NCBI RefSeq assembly: GCF_022846255.1
Contig: NZ_AP025682.1
Reading direction: 5' to 3' (one strand)
Source of the DNA: Escherichia coli
GTDB lineage: Bacteria; Pseudomonadota; Gammaproteobacteria; Enterobacterales; Enterobacteriaceae
DNA length: 64,000 nucleotides
Shown here: positions 12,697 through 64,000 of the stretch, piece by piece
How the letters are laid out: each line of letters begins with the position of its first letter
Numbering within the stretch: position 1 is the stretch's first letter
Translations under genes and position numbers: made by a program
Notes under the pieces: generated by a model
Databases searched by the model: none
What the model saw: the letters and a program-made list of their open reading frames with translations, nothing else
Told to the model about the DNA's origin: nothing

Positions 12697-14461
<1,765 letters not shown>

Positions 14462-20614: not shown

Positions 20615-21643
20615 ATGGATTTATTAGCTGAGAGTATTACTGAAGTCGCTGTCTCTGGGGAAATTGCTAACACCGATCGTGTGTTAAATATCGCTTACGG
20701 TATTGACCGCAACTTTTTATTTGGTGCGGCAGTATCTATGCAATCAGTTGTTATGCATAACCCGGACCTTGCGGTTAAGTTTCATCTCTTTACTGACTAC
20801 ATTGATGAAGATTATCTACAACGTGTTAATGCTTTTACCAGCAAAAATGCTAACGTTGAAGTAAGAATTTATAAAGTATCCAGTGCCTTTATTGATATCT
20901 TCCCCAGCCTGAAACAGTGGTCTTATGCAACATTCTTCCGTTTAGTTGCGTTCCAGTATCTGAGTGAAACTATTGAAAATCTGTTATATATCGATGCTGA
21001 TGTCATCTGTAAAGGCTCATTAGCTGGATTGCTTGATATTAATTTTGATGGCGATAAGTTCGCAGCTGTTATTAAAGATGTGCCTTTTATGCAGGAAAAA
21101 CCAGCGAAGCGTCTGGCTATAGAGGGGCTTCCAGGGAATTATTTCAACGCCGGTGTAGTATATCTGCAGCTTGAAGCATGGGCGAAAAATGATTTTATGA
21201 ATAAAGCCATTGCTATGCTGGCAAGTGACCCGCAGCACACGAAATATAAATGCCTTGACCAGGATATTTTAAATATTCTGTTCTTTGGTCATTGTATTTT
21301 TATTAGCGGCGATTATGATTGCTTTTATGGCATTGACTATGAGTTAAAAAATAAAAGCGATGAAGATTATAAAAAGACCATTACCGATGATACTAAGCTG
21401 ATTCATTATGTTGGCGTAACGAAGCCCTGGAACGACTGGACGAATTATCCCTGCCAGAAGTATTTTAATGAGGCTTATCAGGCTTCTTGCTGGAATGATG
21501 TGGCGTTTATTCCAGCAACGAATGAAAAGCAGTATCAAGTGAAATCCAGACATTTGAAAAGAAATGGTAAAATTGCATCTTCATTTTACTATTTCATGCT
21601 CTATTATAGTAAGAAAATAGCGCGTAAGCATTTTTCCAAATAA
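20615..21643 (+). CDS. waaW: Outer-core family-8 glycosyltransferase, by position WaaW (alpha-1,2-galactosyltransferase)
   Basis: 342-aa GT8-like ORF (YGIDRNFLFGAAVSMQS..., YIDADVICKG, NAGVVYLQ); third GT8 gene, following waaY. Confidence 0.6.
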   Translation: MDLLAESITEVAVSGEIANTDRVLNIAYGIDRNFLFGAAVSMQSVVMHNPDLAVKFHLFTDYIDEDYLQRVNAFTSKNANVEVRIYKVSSAFIDIFPSLKQWSYATFFRLVAFQYLSETIENLLYIDADVICKGSLAGLLDINFDGDKFAAVIKDVPFMQEKPAKRLAIEGLPGNYFNAGVVYLQLEAWAKNDFMNKAIAMLASDPQHTKYKCLDQDILNILFFGHCIFISGDYDCFYGIDYELKNKSDEDYKKTITDDTKLIHYVGVTKPWNDWTNYPCQKYFNEAYQASCWNDVAFIPATNEKQYQVKSRHLKRNGKIASSFYYFMLYYSKKIARKHFSK

Positions 21644-21674
21644 TTATTAAGATTAATCATCCAGAGATTTTTTA

Positions 21675-22448
21675 ATGAACTTGCCCATTTATATTGTCTC
21701 ACTTAAAAGAGATATTGAGCGAAGAAATAAAATAAATGATGTTTTTCATCGATTAAATATTAATTTTGATTTTTTTGATGCCATAGATGCTAAAGACCCT
21801 CAAAATAAAGAAATTATTGATAAAATGAGATTAAGTGGTGTCGGCGCAGAAATGACTGATGGAGAAATTGCTTGTACATTAAGTCATCAGCTTATATATC
21901 AGGATATGATAGATAAAAATATAGAATGGGCAGTCATTCTCGAGGATGATGTTATCGTCAATGAGAGATTTAAAAAATTTCTGCAATATTTTAATCTTTC
22001 TGAAAAAGACAAGTTAAAACATAATAATTTGTATTTGCTTGGAGGACAGAAAGGATTACATGATTATCCGGTATTGGGGCAAAGCCTTTTTAGTAAAGTT
22101 AAGGTAAGTACTTGTACTTTTCGGCGTGTTAATTTCAATAAAAATAAAATTCGGCGTACATGTTCATATTTGATGAATAAAGATATGGCACAAAAGTTGC
22201 TCAAATTGACAATGGATTGTGGCACCTATCGAGCTGATAGCTGGAAGTTAATGCATCAACATAATATTATAAAAGATTTTTATTTAGACGAAATAATATT
22301 ACATCCTATTTTAAATGAGTTTAATAGTCACCTTGAAAGTGAAAGGCTTTTAATATCGGAAAAAAAACAACCCAGGACAAGGCTTCAGAAAAAAATGAAG
22401 TTTATACGTTCCTGGATAAAGGTGGCTTTTTTTTCTCTTTTGAAATGA
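21675..22448 (+). CDS. Family-25-like beta-glycosyltransferase (LgtB/Lic2A-like): WaaV (R1) or WaaX (R4)
   Basis: 257-aa ORF MNLPIYIVSLKRDIERRNKINDVF...FDFFDAIDAKD...ACTLSHQLIYQDMIDKN...AVILEDDVIV resembles LgtB-type transferases; I cannot tell WaaV from WaaX without a reference alignment. Confidence 0.7.
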   Translation: MNLPIYIVSLKRDIERRNKINDVFHRLNINFDFFDAIDAKDPQNKEIIDKMRLSGVGAEMTDGEIACTLSHQLIYQDMIDKNIEWAVILEDDVIVNERFKKFLQYFNLSEKDKLKHNNLYLLGGQKGLHDYPVLGQSLFSKVKVSTCTFRRVNFNKNKIRRTCSYLMNKDMAQKLLKLTMDCGTYRADSWKLMHQHNIIKDFYLDEIILHPILNEFNSHLESERLLISEKKQPRTRLQKKMKFIRSWIKVAFFSLLK

Positions 22449-22482
22449 GATTGTTAATTTAAATTTATTGTGAGATATTAAC

Positions 22483-23736
22483 GTGGAAGTAAAAATTGAG
22501 CAATTTCGAAATAACAGCTGTAATTTTATTTTTTTATTATATTTAATCGGTTTATTGTTTGTGCCAATTGATCTAAATATTACCACTAAAATAATTAATG
22601 CTACAGGTGCATTTTCTCTTTTTTTATTAATTGTAAATAACAAGCATAATTATAATAAAAATATCATTATATTAATTCTTGGCTTACTTCTTTTGGGTGC
22701 AATGAACCTGATATGGTATGAGTTTTATAAAACAGAAGATGTAGTATATAGAAATGCTTATCGAGGCTATCTTGAGTCTGGAAAACTATTAGTATTTAGC
22801 TCGTTGACATTTTTATTACTAAGTAAAAATAAATTCAGGCAAAATGAAAAGCTACATTTTATTTCAGCTATCTTAGTTCAAATAATCATGCTATGTAGAG
22901 CATATTATCAAGGGATATATTTGCATGCAGACCGCATTCCCCTCTCCGCCATGAATGGGAATATTGGTCAGATGGGGGCAGCGACTATTGCGGCTTATGT
23001 GATTACATTCACTACTTTATATTCTTCAATTGTATTCATCAAAATGCAATCGAAATATAAATGGTTTCTATTTTATGCTAACTTTGCTTTAAGCTTTGCA
23101 GCAGTAATGATGACAGGAACACGTGCGGCAATTTTCACATTCCCACTTATGATTATGGTCATATTATTTCTTCAGCATCGTGATCAAAAAGTGTTTTTAT
23201 TTAAAGGATTGAGTGGTGTTTTTATATTGCTACTTGCTTGTGGTTTGATATTTAATAAGGAAATTGAGAGGCGAATTAATTCATTAAAAGCTGATGTTAT
23301 TTCATATGCTACAAAAAATAACAGTCAATCCTCGGTCGGAGCACGTTTTGCAATGGTTAATGCAGGAATTAAAGGAAGTCCTGATGGTTTTAATTGGCAA
23401 TCTCTTGAGCAGCGTGCTGAAAAGATAAAAGCATTAAGTGCAGAAAATAATATTTATAGTGGAGCTTTATTATTCCTTGATGTACATATGCATAATGAAA
23501 TTGTTGAATCTCTTTCCACGAAAGGAAAAATTGGTCTTCTTGTTCTTATTATGTTCTATGTTGCAATGATCTATTACTGTATCCGGGAGAAAAAATATAT
23601 ACTCTTGGTTTTCCCTGCTTCTATTATGTTATTTGGCATTAGTGATGTCATTACACATGCTAAACCAATACCGGCATCGTGGATTGTGTGCCTCTTCCTG
23701 TCTATATCGTTTTTGAGTAAAAAAGAACCACAATAA
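22483..23736 (+). CDS. waaL: O-antigen ligase WaaL (polytopic membrane protein)
   Basis: 417-aa, highly hydrophobic, AT-rich ORF at the end of the central waa operon; the track start is a GTG at 22483 and the true start is uncertain; called from position and topology rather than sequence identity. Confidence 0.7.
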   Translation: MEVKIEQFRNNSCNFIFLLYLIGLLFVPIDLNITTKIINATGAFSLFLLIVNNKHNYNKNIIILILGLLLLGAMNLIWYEFYKTEDVVYRNAYRGYLESGKLLVFSSLTFLLLSKNKFRQNEKLHFISAILVQIIMLCRAYYQGIYLHADRIPLSAMNGNIGQMGAATIAAYVITFTTLYSSIVFIKMQSKYKWFLFYANFALSFAAVMMTGTRAAIFTFPLMIMVILFLQHRDQKVFLFKGLSGVFILLLACGLIFNKEIERRINSLKADVISYATKNNSQSSVGARFAMVNAGIKGSPDGFNWQSLEQRAEKIKALSAENNIYSGALLFLDVHMHNEIVESLSTKGKIGLLVLIMFYVAMIYYCIREKKYILLVFPASIMLFGISDVITHAKPIPASWIVCLFLSISFLSKKEPQ

Positions 23737-23751
23737 TAAAAGCGTTGACTA

Positions 23752-23778
23752 AGTAAGTGGGTATAATGCCCACTTACT
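23752..23778. terminator. Hairpin AGTAAGTGGG-N7-CCCACTTACT between convergent waaL and waaC
   Basis: Perfect 10-bp inverted repeat in the 47-bp gap between the two stops; possible bidirectional terminator, inferred. Confidence 0.4.
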
Positions 23779-23783
23779 ATTTA

Positions 23784-24743
23784 TTAAATCAATGTGATTT
23801 TTTTATAAACAGCCGCTGCTTCTAAATTATTTAAATTCATTAGCGGAGCCCTACAAACCATCTGATTCTTCCCATACCCACCAATTAATCCCGGATCGGT
23901 AGGTCCATAAACCGTGATATTGGGTCTATCCAGTGCCGCCGTTAAATGGCTTAACCCCGTATCCACCGACACTACAAATTTAGCCCCGGCCAGTACGCGG
24001 GCAACGCCTTCCAGACTCATCTTCGGCAATACTTCAACATAAGCAAATCCTTCCGCCAGTCGTTTCGCCCGTTCTTCCTCATGCGGCGCGCCCCACGGAA
24101 GTTTAATCCGTATTCCTGAATCAGCCAGTAAACCAATCAATTCTCGCCAGTGTTCTTCCGGCCAGTGTTTATCATCTCGGGTTGTTGCATGAAGAAATAC
24201 GGCATATTCGCCAGCATCTGTAGGCAGGTTCGTCAGGAAATGCTGTGCGATAGCATAATCGCCCTGGGTTTGTGGTTTGCTATAGCCCAGACTTTTGGCA
24301 AACAGTTCGCGGGTGCGTTCTACGGCGTGCTGCTGTTTTGCAATATGATGTTTACGATTGTAAAACAGGCTGGCTAACGGTTCGCGAGCGGTTTGCCAGT
24401 CCATTCCATGCTTTACGCCATGCGCCAGACGCGTCACCAGCGCCGCGCTTTTTACCAGCCCCTGGGCGTCGATAACTGCGTCATAGTTCTTTGCTTGTAG
24501 CGCTTCACGAAACGCTTTGCGTTCAGCTTTTATGGGAGCCGAGAACCAGGCTTTACGCCAGCGACGTATTGCCACAGGAATAACTCGCTCAACGGCAGCG
24601 TGCCAGGAAGGAATCTGTGCGAACCCTTCTTCCACCACCCAGTCAAACTTAATCCCTGGGATTGCCTGCTGGGCATCAGTGAGTGCGGGCAGCGTGTGGA
24701 GAACATCGCCCATCGACGATGTTTTAACGATCAGAACCCGCAT
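23784..24743 (-). CDS. waaC: LPS heptosyltransferase I WaaC
   Basis: 319-aa ORF MRVLIVKTSSMGDVLHTLPALTDAQQAIPGIKFDWVVEEGFAQIPSWH... Confidence 0.9.
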   Translation of the reverse strand: MRVLIVKTSSMGDVLHTLPALTDAQQAIPGIKFDWVVEEGFAQIPSWHAAVERVIPVAIRRWRKAWFSAPIKAERKAFREALQAKNYDAVIDAQGLVKSAALVTRLAHGVKHGMDWQTAREPLASLFYNRKHHIAKQQHAVERTRELFAKSLGYSKPQTQGDYAIAQHFLTNLPTDAGEYAVFLHATTRDDKHWPEEHWRELIGLLADSGIRIKLPWGAPHEEERAKRLAEGFAYVEVLPKMSLEGVARVLAGAKFVVSVDTGLSHLTAALDRPNITVYGPTDPGLIGGYGKNQMVCRAPLMNLNNLEAAAVYKKITLI

Positions 24744-42389: not shown

Positions 42390-45300
42390 TTACCACTGAA
42401 TACCAGCACCGAGTGCGGCGGAGTATTCACCCTGGCTATTGGTACTACCTTGTAATTTGTAGACCCAACGACCATTGGCGCTCACCATCGACACACCTAA
42501 AGCAACAGCCGATTCACCGTTGTAAGTACCGCCACCAATAGACGCCATGCTGGCACCCGGCGTGTAAGCCTGCGGCAGACCGGTCATTGCCATTGCAGAA
42601 GCGATACCACCACTCAGCTTGCTTTCAGTTTTGGACAGTTTGTTATCCATCTCAACCATGCGCTGATCGGTGTATTGCTTCGTTTCCTGCACACTTTGCT
42701 TCAACTGCGCATAGTTCACTGCGTCGTTGTTGTTCACGCCAGCAGAAACGTTGCTGATGCGAGTCGTACCGCTATTGCCGCCACCGAGAGTGATGTTGCT
42801 GTAGTCGATAGAGCCATCAGCTTTGGTGTCGTAGCGCACGCCGCCTGCTTCAGAAGACTTCAGTTGCGAAACGTTAACCGCATCGGTGGCATTAACACCG
42901 GCAGCAACGTTGGTGATACGGCGCTGGTTGGTAGAAGAACCCACAGAGATCGTATTTTCTTCGTCTGCTACGGAACCCGTGCCCAGTGCGACGCTGTTGT
43001 CAGCGGCAGCAATGGAACCAGAACCAATCGCAACACTGTCTTTACCCTGCGCGTTGGCGTCTGCGCCATCGGTGTTGGTCTTGAAGTACTTAGTGCTACC
43101 GGTGGTTACGATATCGCCAATGCCGTTTTCGATATTGGTCACGCGAGTATCCAGATTAGTGACCTGAGTGTTCAGGTTAGTAATGCTCTGGGTATTCTGG
43201 GAAACCTGCGCGTCCGTTACTTTCAACTGACCCACGTTAACCGCATCGGTATCCGCCGAACCTGCTGCGACGTTGGTGATCTGACGTTGACCGTCTTCAC
43301 TGCCGACAGAGAACTCACCCACAGAGTTCTGCGGTGCGTCCATGTTGTAGGCAGTGTAGTTGGTCTGCGCGCCACGGGTAGTCTGAGAACCATTACCCAT
43401 TGCAATGCTGTCGGCATGATTTGCGCGTGCGTTAGAACCGATAGCAATACCGTTGATCGCATCAGCCAGAACTAAAGTGTTCAGGCCGATACCAATACCC
43501 GCATTACCATTAACGATGGTTTTCGCGCCCATTGCCAGCGAGTCTTCACCGACTGCCAGTGAGTCTTCAGCCGTTGAGTTGGCGTGATAGTATTTGGTTG
43601 GTGTGGTTGCGACTGCACCAATGGCGTTCTGCAACTGGCGAACAGTAACAGCGTCATGGGCTTCAGAACCATCCGCGACGTTGATGATTTGACGATATTT
43701 ACCATCATCACCGATCGACAATGCACCAAGCAGTTCGCCGTCAGTTGTGTCATAACCAATAACCACTCCATCTTCTGTTACGCTGGTAGAGCGTGAACCT
43801 TTCAAAATGACCCGGTTAGAGACCGAATTGCTGCCTAATGCGATGCCGGAATCGATAGTGCTACTGCTGTTCTGACCAATCGCGACACTGCTTTCCCCGG
43901 AAGCGACAGAGTTATAACCCACAGCCGTTGAGCCAACGCCCGCGGCGCTTGCGTCGACAAAGGTTAAGCCCGTGTCGTTGGTGCGAACATAGTTAATACC
44001 CGCCCCATTTTCTTCGATATAGGTACTGTTAGTATTACCGGCGAGTTGGTTGATGATCTCACTATTCTGATTGATCAACATATTCGCGGCATACAACTGA
44101 GAACCGTTAACGGCATCGGTACTGGCGGCAGAAAGTTCACCTGCGGCAACATTCGTGATTTTGCTGGTGGTGTTAGTGCCGTGCGCCGCAGAGAATGAGC
44201 CGGATACGGAATCCCACGTCATCGCATCTTCACCGAGACTGTCGATAGCATCAGTCAGATTGGTGATGTTGGTAGTGTTAGTGGCAACGTCAGTGGTCAG
44301 ATTACTGATATTGGTGGTGTTGGCTGCCACATTCTCGTTGGTAGTATTCAACTGAGAGCCATTAATCGCATCAGTACTGGTGGCACTGATCTCACCCGCA
44401 GCAACATAAGCGATTTTGCTGGCACTACCACCGTGACTGGCACTGAAACTGCCTGAAGCGTTGTCCCAGAGCAGGGCATCGCCGAGTGAGGTTCCGACCG
44501 AAGTGTTAATGGCTGCCAGGGCATCGCCTACGCTGTTGTAGTCAGTTCCATTAATACTATAGGTTGGGCCAGTAAATACACCTGTATCACTTACAGTGGC
44601 ACCGCCACCAAAATAATCCGCTACCGTACTGCTAAGACCGTAGAGTTGTCCACCGTTCACGGCATCGGTACTGGTGGCAGAAATAGCACCTGCGGTGACA
44701 TTGGTGATTTTGCTGGTGGCGTCAGTGCCGTGCGCAGCGCTGAATGCTGTGCCCTTCCACAACAGAGAATCGTCACCGAGACTGTCAACAGCGTCAGTCA
44801 GGTTAGTGATACTGGTGGTATTGCCAGCGACGTCGTTGGTCAGATTAGTGATATTGGTAGTGTTGGCAGCAACATCGTCTTTGGTGGCTTTCAACTGCGA
44901 ACCGTTAACGGCGTCAGTGCTGCCAGCTGTCAGGTCACCGGCTTTGACATTGGTGATTTTGCTGGTGGCGTCAGTGCCGTGCGCAGCGCTGAATGCTGTG
45001 CCCTTCCACAACAGAGAATCGTCACCGAGACTGTCAACAGCGTCAGTCAGGTTAGTGATACTGGTGGTATTGCCAGCGACGTCGTTGGTCAGATTAGTGA
45101 TATTGGTAGTGTTGGCAGCAACATCGTCTTTGGTGGCTTTCAACTGCGAACCGTTAACGGCGTCAGTGCTGCCAGCTGTCAGGTCACCGGCTTTGACATT
45201 GGTGATTTTGCTGGTGGCGTCAGTGCCGTGCGCAGCGCTGAATGCTGTGCCCTTCCACAACAGAGAATCGTCACCGAGACTGTCAACAGCGTCAGTCAGG

Positions 45301-47021
45301 TTAGTGATACTGGTGGTATTGCCAGCGACGTCGTTGGTCAGATTAGTGATATTGGTAGTGTTGGCAGCAACGTCGTCTTTGGTGGCTTTCAACTGCGAAC
45401 CGTTAACAGCGTCAGTGCTGCCAGCAGTCAGGCTGCCAGCACTGACGTTGGTGATTTTGCTGGTGGCTTCGGTGCCGTGTGCGGCACTGAATGCTGTGCC
45501 GTTCCACAACAGAGCATCCTGCTGCAGGTCGTACAATTGAGAGCCGTTTACTACATCGGTGCTGGTTGCAGAAACCGTACCTTTAGCAACATTAGTGATT
45601 TTGTTGGTGGCATTTGCACCGTGATTGGCGCTGAACGCCCCCGCGGTTTTATTCCATTGTAGGGTATTATTGTCGATTCCTGACAGAGCATCACCCACGT
45701 TATTATAGGTTCCGCTTCTCAACGCGTAGCTTACTGCGGTTACGGTGCCATCGCTGCCTACAGTAGCGCCTCCTCCGAGTCGCTTGGCGACTGAATCACT
45801 GATCGTATAAAGCTGTGAGCCGTTGATGGCATCGGTACTGGTGTTGCTTATGGCACCAGCAGCCATATTAACAATTTTGCGTTTTGTTGCGCTGTTGCCA
45901 ACTGAAACCGTATTGCTTGCATCTGTGGTCGATCCTGCGCCGATAGCGACAGAATTGTCGGTCGCTGCTGCAGCCCCTACACCGAGGGCGACAGAATCAT
46001 TGCCGTTTGCCCTGGACTGGCTACCGAAAGCAAGGCTGTTGCTGCCACCAGCGGCACTACCCTCTCCCAATGCGATGGCATTCTCTCCCGAGGACAAACT
46101 GTTACTTCCCAACGCGATTGAGTTCACTTTGCTTGCAATGCTACCTTGCCCCAGCGCAATCGCATTTTGTTCGCTGGCTTCACTGGTGTTACCTAATGCA
46201 ATACTGGATTCGCCAGATGCCTGACTTGCATTACCCAGGGCCATCGAATTCACTCCCAGGGCTTGCGTTTTGTTCCCAATCGCGATGGCGTTATCGTTCG
46301 AACTGATACTGTCAGCACCTATTGCCAGTGAGCCAGTGCTATTAGCTGTAGATTGTCTGCCGAATGCGAGGCTATCAGCACCGGCAGCATTGCTACTTGC
46401 TCCCAGCGCCATTGCATAATCTTTTGACGCATTGGCATTATCACCGAGGGCGATGCTCATAATTTCGTAAGCTTTAGCCGAATTTCCTAACGCAATAGTT
46501 TTTTCACCATCGGCAAGGGAGGAGTCCCCAATAGCAAGAGATGTATAACCATTCGTCTTTGCGTAACGACCAAAAGCCATCGAACGATCGCCATTTGCTA
46601 CTGACGATGCACCCAGCGCGACACTTCTGTCACCCATTGATTTTGCACTAACCCCGAACGCCATGGATGCTCCACCAGTTGCAAGGGTTTTTGACCCGAT
46701 GGCAGAACTGTACTCACCTTCGGCTATCGCGTCATATCCTAAAGCTGTACTCGCGCCACTAGTGTTCATAAAGGTATTTGCTTTTGCCCCTTTACCGATA
46801 GCAACCCAGCCGTCACCTGCTGAGCCATCGCCATAATCAGTTGGCTGCCCGTCGTAGTTATTAGCTAACGCTCCAAACGACGACAACAACCCACCCGCAA
46901 CCAACGCAGAAATTAACAGCTTACTGCGCCCGCTTTTTTTACCACGGCTCTTCGCCGTTTCGCTGGCAACGCTGTAACTGCCCGTCGCCGGGTTCCAGAT
47001 AACTTTAAATATTTTATTCAT
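42390..47021 (-). CDS. upaG: Trimeric autotransporter adhesin, UpaG/EhaG/SadA family (1543 aa)
   Basis: N-terminal extended signal peptide [21 protein letters not shown]...; long low-complexity stalk with tandem repeats; C-terminal YadA-like anchor ending ...[13 protein letters not shown]; located between yibL and lldP, where UpaG/EhaG sit. Confidence 0.85.
44640..45620. repeat. Tandem 249-bp (83-codon) direct repeats inside the adhesin gene, about 3 near-identical copies plus diverged flanking copies
   Basis: Segment ttggtgattttgctggtggcgtcagtgccgtgcgcagcgctgaatgctgtgccc... recurs near 44701, 44950 and 45199; the protein shows the unit [25 protein letters not shown]...[11 protein letters not shown] three times. 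Confidence 0.85.
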
Positions 47022-47064
47022 TATTGATGCTCTCTATTCCTTGATATAAGCGCAGAGGCTGCAT

Positions 47065-47748
47065 TTATTTTTTGTTTTTCCGCTGTGGAGATTCAGCAGT
47101 TTGAAGACGGTCGAACTGAATATTTGCCATGTTGATGGCTAATTTCAGATATTTGAGGTTGTTGGGCGAGACACCTTTTAGCGTCAAATTAATGTCTTGC
47201 CATTGACCTGGTAATAATTTCAGGGAGGAGTTCATTGAGGTACTAAATAGCAATTGCTGCCATTTTGCTAATGCGTTGATGTCGGTGGGTTTTTCTCCCC
47301 CCCATGTCGCGTAGAAACCCATATTTGATACAGGAACACTTAATAAGTTAACCAGTGAAATACGAATAACGCTGCCGTTTTCTACTGCGTCAATAGACAG
47401 TATTTTCCCTGCCAAACCAACAGAACCGTTATTTAAAATGAAGTATTGGGTTTGTGCCGGGTTAAATTCTGTAAAGACAAATTCGTCCTGTTTGTCTTTA
47501 ACTGCCTTCACCACGCCAGCGAGCGTTTTGGTACTGTTTATGATGGTAGTTTGTTGTTTTTCAAAGTGTTCTATCTTGCGCTTGTCGAGTTCTTGTTGTT
47601 TTTCAAGCGCCTCAATTTTGCTTTTTTGTAACTCTTGCTGTGTAACGAGATCGTCGACCTTACTCGCTTTTTCAATATAGTCACACCCTACCAATAAGCA
47701 AAGTTGCAATATCATTAACACGCTTAACAGTGTTTTCTTTAGGTTCAT
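47065..47748 (-). CDS. SadB-like lipoprotein encoded just upstream of the adhesin gene
   Basis: 227-aa ORF with lipoprotein signal peptide and lipobox (LLVGC), then a coiled-coil-like stretch (ELQKSKIEALEKQQELDKRKIEHFEKQQ) and a C-terminal domain; 43 bp upstream of and co-oriented with the adhesin gene, like Salmonella sadB-sadA. Confidence 0.65.
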   Translation of the reverse strand: MNLKKTLLSVLMILQLCLLVGCDYIEKASKVDDLVTQQELQKSKIEALEKQQELDKRKIEHFEKQQTTIINSTKTLAGVVKAVKDKQDEFVFTEFNPAQTQYFILNNGSVGLAGKILSIDAVENGSVIRISLVNLLSVPVSNMGFYATWGGEKPTDINALAKWQQLLFSTSMNSSLKLLPGQWQDINLTLKGVSPNNLKYLKLAINMANIQFDRLQTAESPQRKNKK

Positions 47749-48306
47749 AGGATGAATTCCTTTTCATAATCCCGATACAGTTGATAATTACGGCACAATC
47801 ATTTTTTTTATGAATAATTGGAGTGGGGCATATCCGCAAAATAAATTTGTTAGAGAATTTTTGTATTAATTGGTTGTGCGAATATGTTATTAAATGTCAA
47901 ACGATTTCAGTTTGTAGCCAATAATATTAATCGCGCGGATTTTAATGATCGGTGTCAATCGATGTCAAATGTTTCACCGGATAAAGGCACAGGGCATGGA
48001 AAGGTAAATATTCAGTTGAGTGATGTTTTATTGTGGAATTTGCGAAGATGATTGAAAAATTTAAATAATTAATTATGTTTCAAGCATTGATATGCGGCAA
48101 TTCATTGTTAATATTGATACATCGTTCTTTAATTTGTATCTGATTTTCAGAATTTAGCCTGGCATGTGCGCTAAAAAGAATAGAGGAGATTGAATATATA
48201 ATGTTAAGAACGTTATAAATATTCGATCTCTGAAACAGGCTCCTGCATGTGCCAGCAGGAGCGAGTAAATGGTGAGAGGCTGTGATTACAGCGACGAGAA
48301 AGGAAC

Positions 48307-48669
48307 TTAAAACGCAGTCTTTGAGAACCCTGTCATCTCTTGCAGGCCCATTTCACGGCCCAGCGCGGTCATTGGGTGCACAACCACCAGTCCGCGAACA
48401 CTTTTTTTCAGTTTGCCCATATCAGCCTGCTCTTTTTTGGTGATTGCACGCTGGAACGGCATCTTCATCAGTTTCTGCGCTTCTTTGCTGAGTTTCTGGC
48501 TGTGAACTTCGCGCAGGCGAGCAATTTCTGCTTCCAGCGTGGCTTTCTCTTTTTCCAGTTCGGCATATTTGTCTGCGGCTTCAACCAGCGATAGATCGGC
48601 CTGCTGGTGACGGATGGCGTCCAGACGATCGCTGAGACGTTTGATTTCGTTTTTTTCGACTTCTTTCAT
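48307..48669 (-). CDS. yibL: YibL (ribosome-associated protein, 120 aa)
   Basis: 120-aa [59 protein letters not shown]... Confidence 0.85.
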
Positions 48670-48952
48670 GTGATGACTTCTGATAGAGATAAATTTATAG
48701 CCTCTAGTATGCGCGACCAGGTGCTTTGTTCACAACTAATGGCATTGTAATAGTTCCAGATTGTAACCATTAATGCGTTAAAAAATCACCCAATACATTG
48801 ATTAGTTAAGAAATTTAAAGAAAAAAGATAGTCAACAGAAGCAGGTGATTATTGAGGATTGAGCACGTTTTCCTTAATGTCATTTATACCGGGATCTAAA
48901 CTAAAATTGGCGGCCGCGCATTCCCGGCGCGGGGTAATACGGAGATATCATC

Positions 48953-49162
48953 ATGGGCAAATTAGGTGAAAACGTTCCGCTTCTTATCGATAAAGCCGTA
49001 GATTTCATGGCATCCAGCCAGGCGTTCCGGGAGTATCTGAAAAAACTACCTCCCCGTAACGCGATTCCGTCCGGAATACCTGATGAAAGCGTGCCGTTAT
49101 ATCTACAACGTCTGGAGTATTATCGTCAGCTTTATCGTCCGAAACAGGTAGAGGAGAAGTAA
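48953..49162 (+). CDS. yibT: Small protein YibT (69 aa)
   Basis: 69-aa [72 protein letters not shown]. Confidence 0.8.
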
Positions 49163-49172
49163 GCGAAAGTAC

Positions 49173-49760
49173 TTACTTTTGAAAGGCTTTTTTTAAGCTG
49201 ATTTTGGAAATCAGCTCTGTCAGTGAAAGGACCATTGTTGATCGCACAGCCTGTTGGTAACGCTGAATTTGCATTGCATACAAACTGGAGTCTGCAGGTT
49301 CAAACTGTGGCGGCGGTGGTAACGCCGCCACGCAATGCAGTTCACCAAAGGGTCCAAGTATTTCGTCGTCGGTAAAAGCGTACTCGTTGCCGTCGTGATT
49401 TAGCTCTTCACGCAATGCCATCAGCAGTTCCGCATCTTCGTATTCCTGGCGGTTAATGACGCCCAACCCGTAAATGAGTTTTAAACGCACAGAAAGATCG
49501 CCCAGCGGACCATCGCCGTCGAGTAACGGTTCTACAGCATACTTCACCGCGTAATCGTCTTTGCGGAATACCTGAAGCACCAGAAGATTTACCGCCTCGG
49601 TCAAAAGCTCGACGGCGGTGATCAGAAAGCTTCGCACGGTTTTGCCAGCATTCAGACGCTCAAGCACACGGTTTTCAAAGGCCTGGGTTTGTTCCATTGT
49701 TGCCTGCATATCTGACAATCTGTTATTCGGGCGCAGGGTATCCTGCGCCTGGTCCACCAT
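49173..49760 (-). CDS. mtlR: Mannitol operon repressor MtlR
   Basis: 195-aa [56 protein letters not shown]... Confidence 0.9.
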   Translation of the reverse strand: MVDQAQDTLRPNNRLSDMQATMEQTQAFENRVLERLNAGKTVRSFLITAVELLTEAVNLLVLQVFRKDDYAVKYAVEPLLDGDGPLGDLSVRLKLIYGLGVINRQEYEDAELLMALREELNHDGNEYAFTDDEILGPFGELHCVAALPPPPQFEPADSSLYAMQIQRYQQAVRSTMVLSLTELISKISLKKAFQK

Positions 49761-55024: not shown

Positions 55025-55633
55025 ATGAAACTCGTCGGTAGCTACACCAGCCCGTTTGTACGCAAACTTTCTATTCTGTTGTTAGAAAAGGGCATAACGT
55101 TCGAATTTATTAATGAACTGCCCTATAACGCGGATAACGGCGTGGCGCAATTTAACCCGTTAGGAAAAGTACCGGTACTGGTGACCGAAGAGGGCGAATG
55201 CTGGTTTGATTCACCGATCATCGCTGAATATATTGAATTAATGAATGTTGCTCCGGCGATGTTGCCGCGCGATCCGCTGGAGTCGTTGCGGGTGCGCAAA
55301 ATTGAGGCACTGGCGGATGGCATTATGGATGCCGGGCTGGTATCGGTGCGTGAACAGGCGCGTCCGGCGGCGCAGCAGTCTGAAGATGAATTGTTACGTC
55401 AGCGTGAGAAAATCAACCGCAGTCTGGATGTGCTGGAAGGATATCTGGTCGATGGCACACTCAAAACCGATACGGTCAATCTGGCGACTATCGCCATTGC
55501 CTGTGCCGTCGGATATCTCAATTTCCGCCGCGTTGCGCCAGGCTGGTGTGTCGACCGCCCACACTTAGTCAAACTGGTCGAAAACCTGTTTAGCCGCGAA
55601 AGTTTTGCTCGCACCGAACCGCCAAAGGCTTGA
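55025..55633 (+). CDS. yibF: Glutathione S-transferase-like protein YibF
   Basis: 202-aa [75 protein letters not shown]... Confidence 0.85.
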
Positions 55634-59153: not shown

Positions 59154-60305
59154 ATGGCAGCTTCAACCTTTTTTATTCCTTCCGTGAATGTTATTGGTGC
59201 TGATTCATTGAATGATGCAATGAATATGATGGCAGATTATGGATTTACCCGTACCTTAATTGTCACCGACAACATGTTAACGAAATTGGGTATGGCGGGT
59301 GATGTGCAAAAAGCACTGGAAGAACGCAATATTTTTAGCGTTATTTATGATGGCACCCAACCTAACCCCACCACGGAAAACGTCGCTGCAGGTTTGAAAT
59401 TACTTAAAGAAAATAATTGCGATAGCGTGATTTCCTTAGGCGGTGGTTCTCCACACGACTGCGCAAAAGGTATTGCGCTGGTTGCAGCCAACGGCGGTGA
59501 CATCCGCGATTATGAAGGCGTTGACCGCTCTGCAAAACCGCAGCTGCCGATGATCGCCATCAACACCACGGCGGGTACGGCCTCTGAAATGACTCGTTTC
59601 TGCATCATCACTGACGAAGCGCGTCACATCAAAATGGCGATTGTGGATAAACATGTAACTCCGCTGCTTTCTGTCAATGACTCCTCTCTGATGATCGGTA
59701 TGCCGAAGTCACTGACCGCCGCAACGGGTATGGATGCCTTAACGTACGCTATCGAAGCGTATGTTTCTATTGCCGCCACGCCGATCACTGACGCTTGTGC
59801 ACTGAAAGCCGTGACCATGATTGCCGAAAACCTGCCGTTAGCCGTTGAAGATGGCAGCAATGCTAAAGCGCGTGAAGCAATGGCTTATGCCCAGTTCCTC
59901 GCCGGTATGGCGTTCAATAATGCTTCTCTGGGTTATGTTCATGCGATGGCGCACCAGCTGGGCGGTTTCTACAACCTGCCACACGGTGTATGTAACGCCG
60001 TTTTGCTGCCGCATGTTCAGGTATTCAACAGCAAAGTCGCCGCTGCACGTCTGCGTGATTGTGCCGCTGCAATGGGCGTGAACGTGACAGGTAAAAACGA
60101 CGCGGAAGGTGCTGAAGCCTGCATTAACGCCATCCGTGAACTGGCGAAGAAAGTGGATATCCCGGCAGGCCTACGCGACCTGAACGTGAAAGAAGAAGAT
60201 TTCGCGGTTCTGGCGACTAATGCCCTGAAAGATGCCTGCGGCTTTACTAACCCGATCCAGGCAACTCACGAAGAAATTGTGGCGATTTATCGCGCAGCGA
60301 TGTAA
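59154..60305 (+). CDS. yiaY: Iron-containing alcohol dehydrogenase YiaY
   Basis: 383-aa [54 protein letters not shown]... Confidence 0.9.
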
Positions 60306-60350: not shown

Positions 60351-60429
60351 CTATCTCAAAACTTGCTTTTTTTGAGATAGTTTCTCTTTCCTGCTATACA
60401 CTATCTCAATATTGCGCTTTTTTGAGATA
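60351..60429. promoter_or_regulatory. Two related palindromes (CTATCTCAAAA-N7-TTTTGAGATAG and TATCTCAA-N12-TTGAGATA) 50 bp apart, immediately upstream of the Fic gene
   Basis: Palindromes at 60351-60379 (11-bp perfect arms) and 60402-60429 (8-bp perfect arms); the second ends 5 nt before the Fic ATG; operator role is inferred. Confidence 0.4.
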
Positions 60430-60434
60430 AGCAC

Positions 60435-61730
60435 ATGGCTATCAAATCACCTCCCGGACTTATTCCTTTATCACACTTATCGGGTGAGGAACTCCTGGCC
60501 CACCTGCGCTTTAACCGGGTTACCGATGAAAAAGGACGTTATCTGCCTTTTGATGAGTTGCAGTACCGCATCAAAAAAGGAGAAAACGTCGATGTGGCGT
60601 GGACGCTTACCCGTCTGGCGCGCAACGCGGCGATCCAACGAATTAATTATTGCAATGAAGCGGGTGAACAGGCCGGATTCAACATTACCCCGGTGATTGC
60701 AGAAGCGTGCGAGCTTGTCGACAAACGTGCTACCGCGCTGGCGCTGAAAGATCAGACTGAACGGTTACGCGGGGCCGGAGCCGAGTTAAGCCAGTTACGC
60801 CTGGAAGAGCCGATCACCAGCTCCCAGCTGGAAGGTGCGAATACTACAACGCTGGTGGCGAGAAAAATGCTGGAAACAGGGCGGTCGCCACGCACTGAAG
60901 ACGAGCATATGATTGCGGGAAATGCCCGGCTGATGGCGGAAATTCCGCACTTACTCGCAGAACCGCTGACACCTGCGCTTATTCGCCAGTTACATGCCAT
61001 TGGTATGGGTGGAATCAATGACGCGAAATATCGTCCGGGAGAATTTCGTGAAACAGATGATGTTGTGATCGCCGACTATGATGGCAATATAGTGCATCAA
61101 CCGCCCGCTGCGGCATTGTTACCGGAACGGCTGGAAAAAGTTTGCCAGTGGTTAAACAGCCATGAAGGGTATATTCATCCGTTGGTCCGTGCCTGCATTC
61201 TGCATTTTATGCTGGCCCATGAACATCCGTTTCGGGATGGCAACGGGCGCACCAGTCGGGCGCTGTTTTACTGGTATATGCTGAAATCGGGCTACGATGT
61301 CTTTAAATATATTTCCATCAGCCGTTTGCTTCATGCTGCACCGGTCAAATATGCCGCCAGCTACCAGTACACTGAATCAGATGGTATGGATCTGACTTAT
61401 TTCCTTGAATATCAGGCGGGTGTCATTAAACGTGCTCTGCAAAACTGGCAGCAGCATATCGATGAAATTACACAACGAAGCGCAAAACTCGATAGTGTGC
61501 TGTTTAGCTCTGGTGTGCTTAAACGCCTGAATCCGCGCCAGGTAACGCTCCTGAATGTGATGCTCGCCAATCCGGGGAAAGAGTACACAGTTGCTGAAAT
61601 TAGCGCGAGCCTGGGCGTCTCTGATAATACGGCTCGAGCTGATTTACGGACAATTGTTAAAGAAGGATTCGCGCAAGAGAAAAGAATTAATAACCAGCAA
61701 GCAGTGTACGTCGCACACTACCCGCTGTAG
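60435..61730 (+). CDS. Fic-domain protein (Fic core [14 protein letters not shown], upstream inhibitory-type motif SSQLEG, C-terminal winged-HTH-like region)
   Basis: 431-aa ORF; canonical HxFx(D/E)GNGRxxR Fic motif; a [S/T]xxxE[G/N] segment (TSSQLEGAN) N-terminal to it; C-terminal [36 protein letters not shown] looks like a wHTH. Confidence 0.8.
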
Positions 61731-61837: not shown

Positions 61838-63376
61838 ATGACCAATAATCCCCCTTCAGCACAGATTAAGCCCGGCGAGTATGGTTTCCCCCTCAAATTA
61901 AAAGCCCGCTACGACAACTTTATCGGTGGCGAATGGGTAGCGCCTGCCGATGGCGAGTATTACCAGAACCTGACGCCGGTGACCGGGCAGCTACTGTGCG
62001 AAGTGGCGTCTTCGGGCAAACGAGACATCGATCTGGCGCTGGATGCTGCGCATAAAGTGAAAGATAAATGGGCGCACACCTCGGTGCAGGATCGCGCGGC
62101 GATTCTGTTTAAGATTGCCGATCGAATGGAACAAAACCTTGAACTTTTAGCGACGGCAGAAACCTGGGATAACGGCAAACCCATTCGCGAAACCAGTGCT
62201 GCCGACGTGCCGCTGGCGATTGATCATTTTCGCTATTTCGCCTCGTGTATTCGGGCGCAGGAAGGTGGGATCAGTGAAGTGGATAGCGAAACCGTGGCCT
62301 ATCATTTCCATGAACCGTTAGGCGTGGTGGGGCAGATTATCCCGTGGAACTTCCCGCTGCTGATGGCGAGCTGGAAAATGGCCCCCGCGCTGGCGGCGGG
62401 CAACTGTGTGGTGCTGAAACCCGCACGTCTTACTCCGCTTTCTGTACTGCTGCTAATGGAAATCGTCGGTGATTTACTGCCGCCAGGGGTGGTGAACGTG
62501 GTCAATGGCGCAGGTGGGGAAATTGGCGAATATCTGGCGACCTCGAAACGCATCTCCAAAGTGGCGTTTACTGGCTCAACGGAAGTGGGCCAACAAATTA
62601 TGCAATACGCCACGCAAAACATTATTCCGGTGACGCTGGAGCTGGGCGGCAAATCGCCAAATATCTTCTTTGCTGATGTGATGGATGAAGAAGATGCCTT
62701 TTTCGATAAAGCGCTGGAAGGCTTTGCACTGTTTGCCTTTAACCAGGGCGAAGTTTGCACCTGTCCAAGCCGTGCTTTAGTGCAGGAGTCTATCTACGAA
62801 CGCTTTATGGAACGCGCTATCCGCCGTGTCGAAAGCATTCGCAGCGGTAACCCGCTCGACAGCGTGACGCAAATGGGCGCGCAGGTTTCTCACGGGCAAC
62901 TGGAAACCATCCTCAACTACATTGATATCGGTAAAAAAGAGGGCGCTGATGTGCTCACCGGCGGGCGACGCAAGCTGCTGGAAGGCGAACTGAAAGACGG
63001 CTACTACCTCGAACCGACGATTCTGTTTGGTCAGAACAATATGCGCGTGTTCCAGGAGGAGATTTTTGGCCCGGTGCTGGCGGTAACCACCTTCAAAACG
63101 ATAGAAGAAGCGCTGGAGCTGGCGAACGATACGCAATATGGCCTGGGCGCGGGCGTCTGGAGCCGCAACGGTAATCTGGCCTATAAGATGGGGCGCGGCA
63201 TTCAGGCTGGGCGCGTGTGGACCAACTGTTATCACGCTTACCCGGCACATGCGGCGTTTGGCGGCTACAAACAATCAGGCATTGGCCGCGAAACCCACAA
63301 AATGATGCTTGAGCATTACCAGCAAACCAAGTGCCTGCTGGTGAGCTACTCGGATAAACCGTTGGGGCTGTTCTGA
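61838..63376 (+). CDS. aldB: Aldehyde dehydrogenase B
   Basis: ORF contains [51 protein letters not shown]...; 512 aa from ATG 61838. Confidence 0.95.
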
Positions 63377-63387
63377 TGTGAAAGGCT

Positions 63388-63407
63388 GCCCGGCGTGTAT
63401 TGCCGGG
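63388..63407. terminator. Hairpin GCCCGGC-N6-GCCGGGC between convergent aldB and the epimerase gene
   Basis: GC-rich inverted repeat in the 46-bp convergent gap; possible bidirectional terminator, inferred. Confidence 0.4.
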
Positions 63408-63422
63408 CACTATCAGGTATGG

Positions 63423-64000
63423 CTACTGCCCGTAATAGGCATTGGCCCCATGCTTACGCAGGTAGTGCTTATCCAGCAGTTCGTTTTGCATCGCAGGGAG
63501 CTGTGGCGCAAGCTGGCGCGAGAACAGACCCATATAGGCGCACTCTTCCAGTACCACGGCGTTATGCACCGCATCGGCGGCATTTTTTCCCCAGGCGAAC
63601 GGGCCGTGAGAATGCACCAGTACCGCCGGGATTTGTGCCGGGTTCAACCCACGCTCTTCGAAGGTTTTAATGATCACTTTGCCGGTCTGGTATTCATACT
63701 CGCCGTTGATCTCTTCTGCGGTCATCAGGCGCGTGCAGGGGATGGCTCCGTAAAAATAATCGGCGTGAGTAGTGCCCCAGGCGGGGAGATCAAGTCCGGC
63801 CTGCGACCAGATGGTGGCGTGGCGCGAGTGGGTATGCACTATGCCGCCAATCTCCGCAAAGCGACGGTAAAGCGCCAGATGCGTTGGCGTGTCGGAAGAG
63901 GGCTTTTTGCTGCCTTCCACCACCTTGCCGCTGGCTATCTCAACCACCACCATATCGTCGGCGGTCATTACCTCATACTCAACGCCGGAAGGCTTAATCA
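63423..64000 (-). CDS. L-ribulose-5-phosphate 4-epimerase (class II aldolase family; SgbE-like), C-terminal part; 5' end beyond window
   Basis: Partial [77 protein letters not shown]...[14 protein letters not shown]; SgbE, AraD and UlaF paralogues cannot be separated without alignment. Confidence 0.7.

Follow-up and report, generated by a model that had tools for sequence, protein, structure and literature searches.

The aldB gene of Escherichia coli K-12 is separated by several genes from the yiaK-sgbE operon that faces it. The question raised by this locus is why, in the 64,000-nucleotide stretch of E. coli DNA analysed here as a whole (the window), aldB converges directly on an L-ribulose-5-phosphate epimerase gene. 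A preliminary description of the window stated that yiaT, yiaU, yiaV and yiaW lie at this place in K-12. It took their apparent absence, together with the insertion of a Fic-family gene on the other side of aldB, as the mark of a rearranged segment.

The genes flanking the junction

The features of the junction are collected in Table 1. The plus-strand gene was assigned as the aldB orthologue, as its product belongs to the expected family and is identical to K-12 AldB (b3588) at 509 of 512 amino acids, and yiaY lies upstream with the Fic-family gene interposed. Its stop codon (TGA) occupies positions 63374-63376. Facing it, CTA at 63423-63425 reads on the complementary strand as TAG, the stop of the epimerase gene, whose minus-strand frame runs over 191 uninterrupted codons and then off the window end. 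The sequence and RNA folding both confirmed that the two stops are separated by 46 bp with a GC hairpin, as had been described.

Table 1. Features at and around the aldB-sgbE junction (window coordinates)
Feature	Position	Strand	Description
yiaY	59154..60305	+	conserved left neighbour; ORF; NRG857c annotation
Fic indel versus K-12	60358..61724	.	1,367 bp, clean; the two flanking alignment blocks abut at a single position in K-12
Fic-family gene	60435..61730	+	between yiaY and aldB; Pfam PF02661, E = 5.7e-20; annotated Fic family protein
aldB (aldehyde dehydrogenase B)	61838..63376	+	complete, 512 aa; Pfam PF00171, E = 5.6e-159; annotated aldB in NRG857c
aldB-sgbE spacer	63377..63422	.	exactly 46 bp between the stops of convergent genes; null-allele junction
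GC-rich hairpin	63387..63409	.	stem 9 bp, loop 5 nt (63387-63395 / 63401-63409); both strands folded
sgbE, 3' part	63423..64000	-	codons 41-231 + TAG; L-ribulose-5-phosphate 4-epimerase, yiaK-sgbE operon; leaves window

The 191 residues encoded within the window are 100% identical to SgbE of strain NRG857c and 96.3% to K-12 SgbE; AraD and UlaF are more distant, at 77.5% and 63.8%. The full-length NRG857c SgbE has the class II aldolase / AraD-type fold (Pfam PF00596, E = 2e-50). For the proposed extension past position 64000 we used NRG857c, whose sequence matches the final 13 kb of the window at 99.2% identity. Beyond sgbE this genome carries sgbU, sgbH, lyxK, yiaO, yiaN, yiaM, a DUF4862 gene, yiaL, yiaK and yiaJ, i.e. 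the sgbU-sgbH-lyxK-yiaONM-yiaLK part of the operon is intact, and sgbE is the last gene of yiaK-yiaL-yiaMNO-lyxK-sgbH-sgbU-sgbE. Judged by identity and by the NRG857c gene order, the epimerase gene is sgbE, the last gene of the yiaK-sgbE operon. What had been called SgbE-like is sgbE itself and no paralogue from elsewhere, and in the RefSeq and NRG857c annotations it is labelled 'araD', with sgbH labelled ulaD.

Some differences from related strains were also seen farther from the junction. The window is an exact match to neither Nissle 1917 (about 98.5% identity) nor NRG857c (99.2%). In the waa (LPS core) region of Nissle, megablast found nothing that matches positions 21564-23844, and positions 44167-49612, the counterpart of upaG and its neighbours, align at only 94.9% identity with many gaps. 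K-12 has an rhsA element by yibF (position 24184 onward of the K-12 locus), and in NRG857c yibF adjoins yibH-yibI with no Rhs. The window, with yibF at about 55025-55633 and yibH upstream, has the Rhs-free arrangement by collinearity with NRG857c.

Contents of the interval among E. coli genomes

The sgbE-aldB interval of K-12 MG1655 measures 4,191 bp, versus 46 bp in the window, and contains ysaC', ysaD', yiaT, yiaU, yiaV and yiaW. The K-12 gene order given in the preliminary description was thus borne out, K-12 being without the adjacency. The K-12 interval (b3583-b3588) lies between the same, equally oriented flanks, the yiaK-sgbE operon and aldB-yiaY-selBA, and is collinear with the lineage of the window. 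It further differs by REP-like elements past aldB, by another sgbE-proximal hairpin (GCCGGGGC/GCCCCGGC) and by the sgbE stop codon, TAA in K-12 and TAG in the window. The two primed genes (positions 12814-13110 of the K-12 locus) are remnants, ysaC' of an AraC-family regulator (104 bp, 94% identity) and ysaD' of a GH127 glycoside hydrolase (190 bp, 88% identity), and both genes are intact at the same site in other E. coli.

Overall, at least five interval contents were found. The K-12 type combines the AraC and GH127 remnants with yiaTUVW. The O157:H7 type retains an intact AraC-MFS-GH127 module plus yiaTUVW, and its entire yiaK-sgbE operon is deleted; in O157:H7 strain 1130, which also carries Fic, a truncated yiaJ fragment abuts the AraC-family gene (L003 1734-2691). 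The R11 type (phylogroup B2) has AraC-MFS-GH127 alone, with GH127 frameshifted, and the type represented by SW070910 and WR14-2 has AraC-MFS-GH127 and hicAB. In these two strains the hicAB toxin-antitoxin pair takes the place of yiaTUVW, from GH127 to aldB (SW070910, L004 9364-9976; WR14-2, L006 13520-14132). Finally, the null type is without either module, as in the window. The preliminary description was therefore right that yiaT-yiaW are missing and too narrow in confining the loss to them, AraC-MFS-GH127 being absent too.

The adjacency is by no means peculiar to this strain. Of 5,426 complete E. coli genomes, 480 (about 9%) contain the null junction as a single contiguous match, among them those of Nissle 1917, LF82, NRG857c and the type strain DSM 30083/ATCC 11775, all of which we take to be phylogroup B2 strains. 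At a coverage of at least 80%, yiaT-W were present in 3,720 of the 5,426 genomes and AraC-MFS-GH127 in 2,313, most of the others having K-12-like remnants only of the latter.

The annotations of NRG857c, K-12, O157:H7, R11, SW070910 and WR14-2 list no IS, integrase or phage gene in the interval, and neither transposase or integrase genes nor terminal repeats that would point to a mobile-element-mediated rearrangement were found at the junction. On either side of the junction, the genes keep the order and orientation that they have in K-12 and Citrobacter, so that the supposed rearranged segment reduces to pure presence or absence of genes.

The Fic-family gene upstream of aldB

The left boundary of the Fic indel falls inside a hairpin (AACTATCTCAAAACTTGCTTTTTTTGAGATAGTT), and K-12 shares the final 6 bp of the Fic ORF. 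The Fic-aldB stretch occurs in about 1,572 of the 5,426 complete E. coli genomes and also in E. albertii. Neither K-12 nor two Citrobacter species have Fic; in the latter, yiaY adjoins aldB. O157:H7 combines Fic with both modules, and SW070910 and WR14-2, whose interval contains AraC-MFS-GH127 and hicAB, have no Fic; in E. coli, the presence of Fic is thus independent of the null junction. The two co-occur in the B2 lineage of the window and in E. albertii. Fic, which had been counted as part of a rearrangement around aldB, is accordingly a separate indel.

Gene order in other Enterobacteriaceae

Outgroup loci were retrieved by searching contigs with AldB, and their gene order was read from tblastn matches of 20 marker proteins. 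Besides the outgroups, the AldB search covered two Escherichia representatives, with E. fergusonii, E. marmotae and E. ruysiae outside the sample.

The fullest order was that of Citrobacter sp. FP75, i.e. selA-selB-yiaY-aldB-yiaW-yiaV-yiaU-yiaT-GH127-MFS-AraC-sgbE-sgbU-sgbH, which C. werkmanii shares as far as AraC. Leclercia has aldB-yiaU-yiaT-GH127-MFS-AraC, and Enterobacter cloacae, Pseudescherichia vulneris and Kluyvera have aldB-GH127-MFS-AraC. One genome that likely belongs to a cryptic clade (L019) carries yiaWVUT and REP elements and not the null allele.

The modules of E. coli and Citrobacter are 70-83% identical, and aldB and sgbE 82-85%. As the modules have diverged from Citrobacter about as much as their flanks, the full content is most simply ancestral and the E. 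coli alleles would be independent partial losses from it. The ancestral enterobacterial order would most simply be aldB - yiaW-yiaV-yiaU-yiaT - GH127-MFS-AraC - (sgbE...yiaK).

The null junction in E. albertii

The type strain of E. albertii, NBRC 107761, has the order Fic-aldB-46 bp-sgbE, with 93.3% identity to the window over the shared 3.65 kb. In six E. albertii loci the spacer is identical to that of the window at 44 of 46 positions and the sgbE stop is TAG. An exact look-up with E. albertii SgbE, in which 14 contigs including the TW07627 chromosome were read and similar loci collapsed, gave five displayed loci. All five had the same spacing and spacer, and Fic was present in the three reaching far enough, the two shortest ending within aldB. 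Three of the loci continue beyond yiaM, and each of these has, like NRG857c, a DUF4862 gene in the yiaL-yiaM gap. E. albertii (NBRC 107761, TW07627) thus shares with NRG857c the junction structure, Fic upstream of aldB and the DUF4862 gene, in flanks that, at about 93% identity, differ from those of the window by species-level divergence. Because the spacer is shared in such flanks, the null junction probably predates the inter-species divergence of the flanks or is about as old. Judged in this way from sequence comparison, the null allele appears to be old, and it is not strain-specific.

The DUF4862 gene (Pfam E = 9e-95) occupies the yiaL-yiaM gap at positions 23685-24605 of the NRG857c locus (L001) and 601-1539 of a TW07627 locus (L090), and is lacking in K-12 and WR14-2. 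It is a third structural feature common to B2 and E. albertii at this locus. E. albertii differs in that lyxK and sgbH seem fused or truncated, being called as one 588-aa product (FGGY_N + OMPdecase; L020 4624-6387, L090 4388-6154) with a partial LyxK match, and in that TW07627 has an IS200-type (Y1_Tnp) transposase gene between Fic and yiaY. The yia operon of E. albertii may be decaying.

The flanks of R11, which carries AraC-MFS-GH127, and of NRG857c, which carries the null allele, are 99-100% identical and their few differences are scattered singletons, which we read as alleles having moved between close backgrounds by homologous recombination. Neither sliding-window identity, per-gene distances nor informative sites gave crossover points, a clear recombination tract or E. 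albertii-like import at the junction. B2 sgbE is 94.8% identical to that of E. albertii versus 92.2% to that of K-12, and sgbU has the opposite affinity. For aldB and sgbH, the distances of B2 and K-12 to E. albertii differ by less than 1 point; by per-gene distance, B2 is not consistently closer to E. albertii. Among the fetched alleles, no recent donor of the R11 AraC-MFS-GH127 module was found (96-98% identity to other E. coli modules). Between B2 and K-12, the yia operon genes from sgbE to yiaO are 91.6-94.7% identical, and aldB and yiaY 96.6-97.5% (L001 17124-21811 versus the K-12 locus). Within E. coli, the yia operon has therefore diverged about twice as much as aldB and yiaY, nearing the level seen between E. 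coli and E. albertii.

The 46-bp spacer and its hairpin

The spacer contains the inverted repeat TGCCCGGC-gtgtatt-GCCGGGCA and is identical in the window and in NRG857c. A 66-nt segment with the hairpin folded at -27.5 kcal/mol on the plus strand (z = -2.4 versus shuffles) and at -23.9 kcal/mol on the minus strand (z = -3.1). As in intrinsic bidirectional terminators, a GC-rich stem-loop thus stands just past the stop codon. No U-rich tract was found 3' of the stem on either strand, the tails being ACTATCAGG (plus) and AGCCTTTCAC (minus), so that the hairpin fails one defining feature of intrinsic terminators, and a simple intrinsic-terminator scan did not call it. The hairpin is most likely a common 3'-end structure of the convergent aldB and yiaK-sgbE transcripts, a putative role that we propose.

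With K-12, the spacer can be aligned over the initial 12 bp past the aldB stop only, and its last 34 bp were not found in any fetched locus with another allele. Breakpoints of a simple deletion were sought by aligning the null spacer to the sgbE- and aldB-proximal sequences of K-12, R11 and SW070910, and were rejected, the sequences beyond the 12 bp being unrelated. As these 34 bases are absent from every other fetched allele, the null allele did not arise by a simple, recent deletion from an allele now present in E. coli.

In both Citrobacter species, a hairpin stands 15 nt past the aldB stop with the stem TGCCCGG/CCGGGCA, which is the stem of the window spacer; it is followed by TATC in Citrobacter sp. 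FP75, compared with CTATC in the window. The local-alignment score of the spacer with the Citrobacter hairpin is marginal, as 13 of 2,000 shuffles score at least as high. The competing match, of the spacer with one arm of the sgbE-proximal hairpin of K-12, is equalled by 12 of 2,000, and MAFFT put the arms of the spacer and of the Citrobacter hairpin out of register. The shared stem thinly suggests that the spacer may be the ancestral aldB-proximal terminator region, now abutting the sgbE stop; if so, the other E. coli alleles would have swapped that hairpin for REP elements.

Discussion

We consider it probable that the source of the window is a phylogroup-B2-like E. coli with an old null (deletion) allele of a modular aldB-sgbE interval, in which the hairpin serves as shared 3' end. 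An ancestral gene block would have decayed piecemeal and differently in each Escherichia lineage. In the allele of the window, both modules (about 9 kb) would have been lost, leaving 46 bp with one GC-rich hairpin that may act as a weak terminator or as an RNA-stabilising stem for the aldB and yiaK-sgbE transcripts. Later, homologous recombination would have shuffled the alleles onto nearly identical B2 backgrounds.

Two other histories would give the same adjacency. In one of them, AraC-MFS-GH127 was recently deleted within B2 from an R11-like allele. The near-identity of the R11 and NRG857c flanks holds right up to the junction, homology ending 12 bp past the aldB stop and restarting at the sgbE stop, which on its own would point to such an event. 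However, the R11-type allele has neither the 34 spacer bases nor the TAG stop of sgbE, so that plain excision cannot yield the null sequence, and the E. albertii spacer in flanks of about 93% identity would call for a very short and precise interspecies transfer. We therefore disfavour a recent B2 deletion as unlikely. The other history holds that the adjacency of aldB and sgbE is primitive in Escherichia, yiaTUVW and AraC-MFS-GH127 having been inserted later in other E. coli lineages. Phylogroup B2 is often regarded as one of the early-branching phylogroups of E. coli, the null allele is common to B2 and E. albertii, and the spacer stem is that found next to aldB in Citrobacter, where other E. 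coli alleles have REP elements. Against this, the same modules, likewise ordered and oriented, separate aldB from sgbE in Citrobacter sp. FP75, and modules adjoin aldB in five other enterobacterial genera. In addition, a module identity of 70-83% versus 82-85% for the flanks argues for vertical descent and not for re-insertion at an identical site. We hold primitive adjacency to be improbable, and infer deletion rather than primitive absence.

A third explanation, that the epimerase is an araD or ulaF paralogue or that the junction is an assembly artefact, finds some footing in the RefSeq name 'araD'. It is refuted by the far closer match to SgbE (96.3%) than to AraD (77.5%) or UlaF (63.8%) and by sgbU, sgbH, lyxK and yiaO coming next in NRG857c, as well as by the one-piece junction in 480 independent complete genomes.

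With old deletion as the preferred reading, the depth of its history may be considered. The DUF4862 gene, the null junction and Fic might together form an ancient haplotype, persisting in E. albertii and B2 from near the divergence of the two species, either as a trans-species polymorphism or through a very old introgression. We put this forward tentatively, as a possibility short of an even chance. The divergence of the yia operon between B2 and K-12 fits a deep coalescence of the region. If the ancient haplotype is real, it coexists in E. coli with module-bearing haplotypes.

The interval resembles the strain-variable intervals of E. coli (genomic plasticity regions) in that conserved flanks enclose alternative contents (yiaTUVW, AraC-MFS-GH127, hicAB, REP elements or nothing) and in the pseudogene remnants of some alleles. 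It differs from them in that no integrase, tRNA, IS or phage gene occurs in the aldB-sgbE alleles examined. Apart from hicAB, ancestral chromosomal genes seem to have been lost step by step, rather than mobile DNA gained. The arrangement is a common collinear deletion allele of a decaying gene block and no new kind of element, and it is already annotated in hundreds of public complete genomes. A literature search on yiaT/yiaU/yiaV/yiaW and sgbE/aldB returned no description of the polymorphism, the papers found being a genome-reduction announcement and a promoter survey; this silence reflects ordinariness and not novelty.

Strains with the null allele are without the YiaT outer-membrane protein, the YiaU regulator, the putative efflux components YiaVW and the AraC-MFS-GH127 sugar-utilisation cassette. 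The practical worth of the finding is that of an annotation note, bearing on the RefSeq label 'araD' given to sgbE in null strains. For population genetics, the interval offers a tidy case of stepwise, lineage-specific decay of a gene block, in which one allele occurs on both sides of a species boundary.
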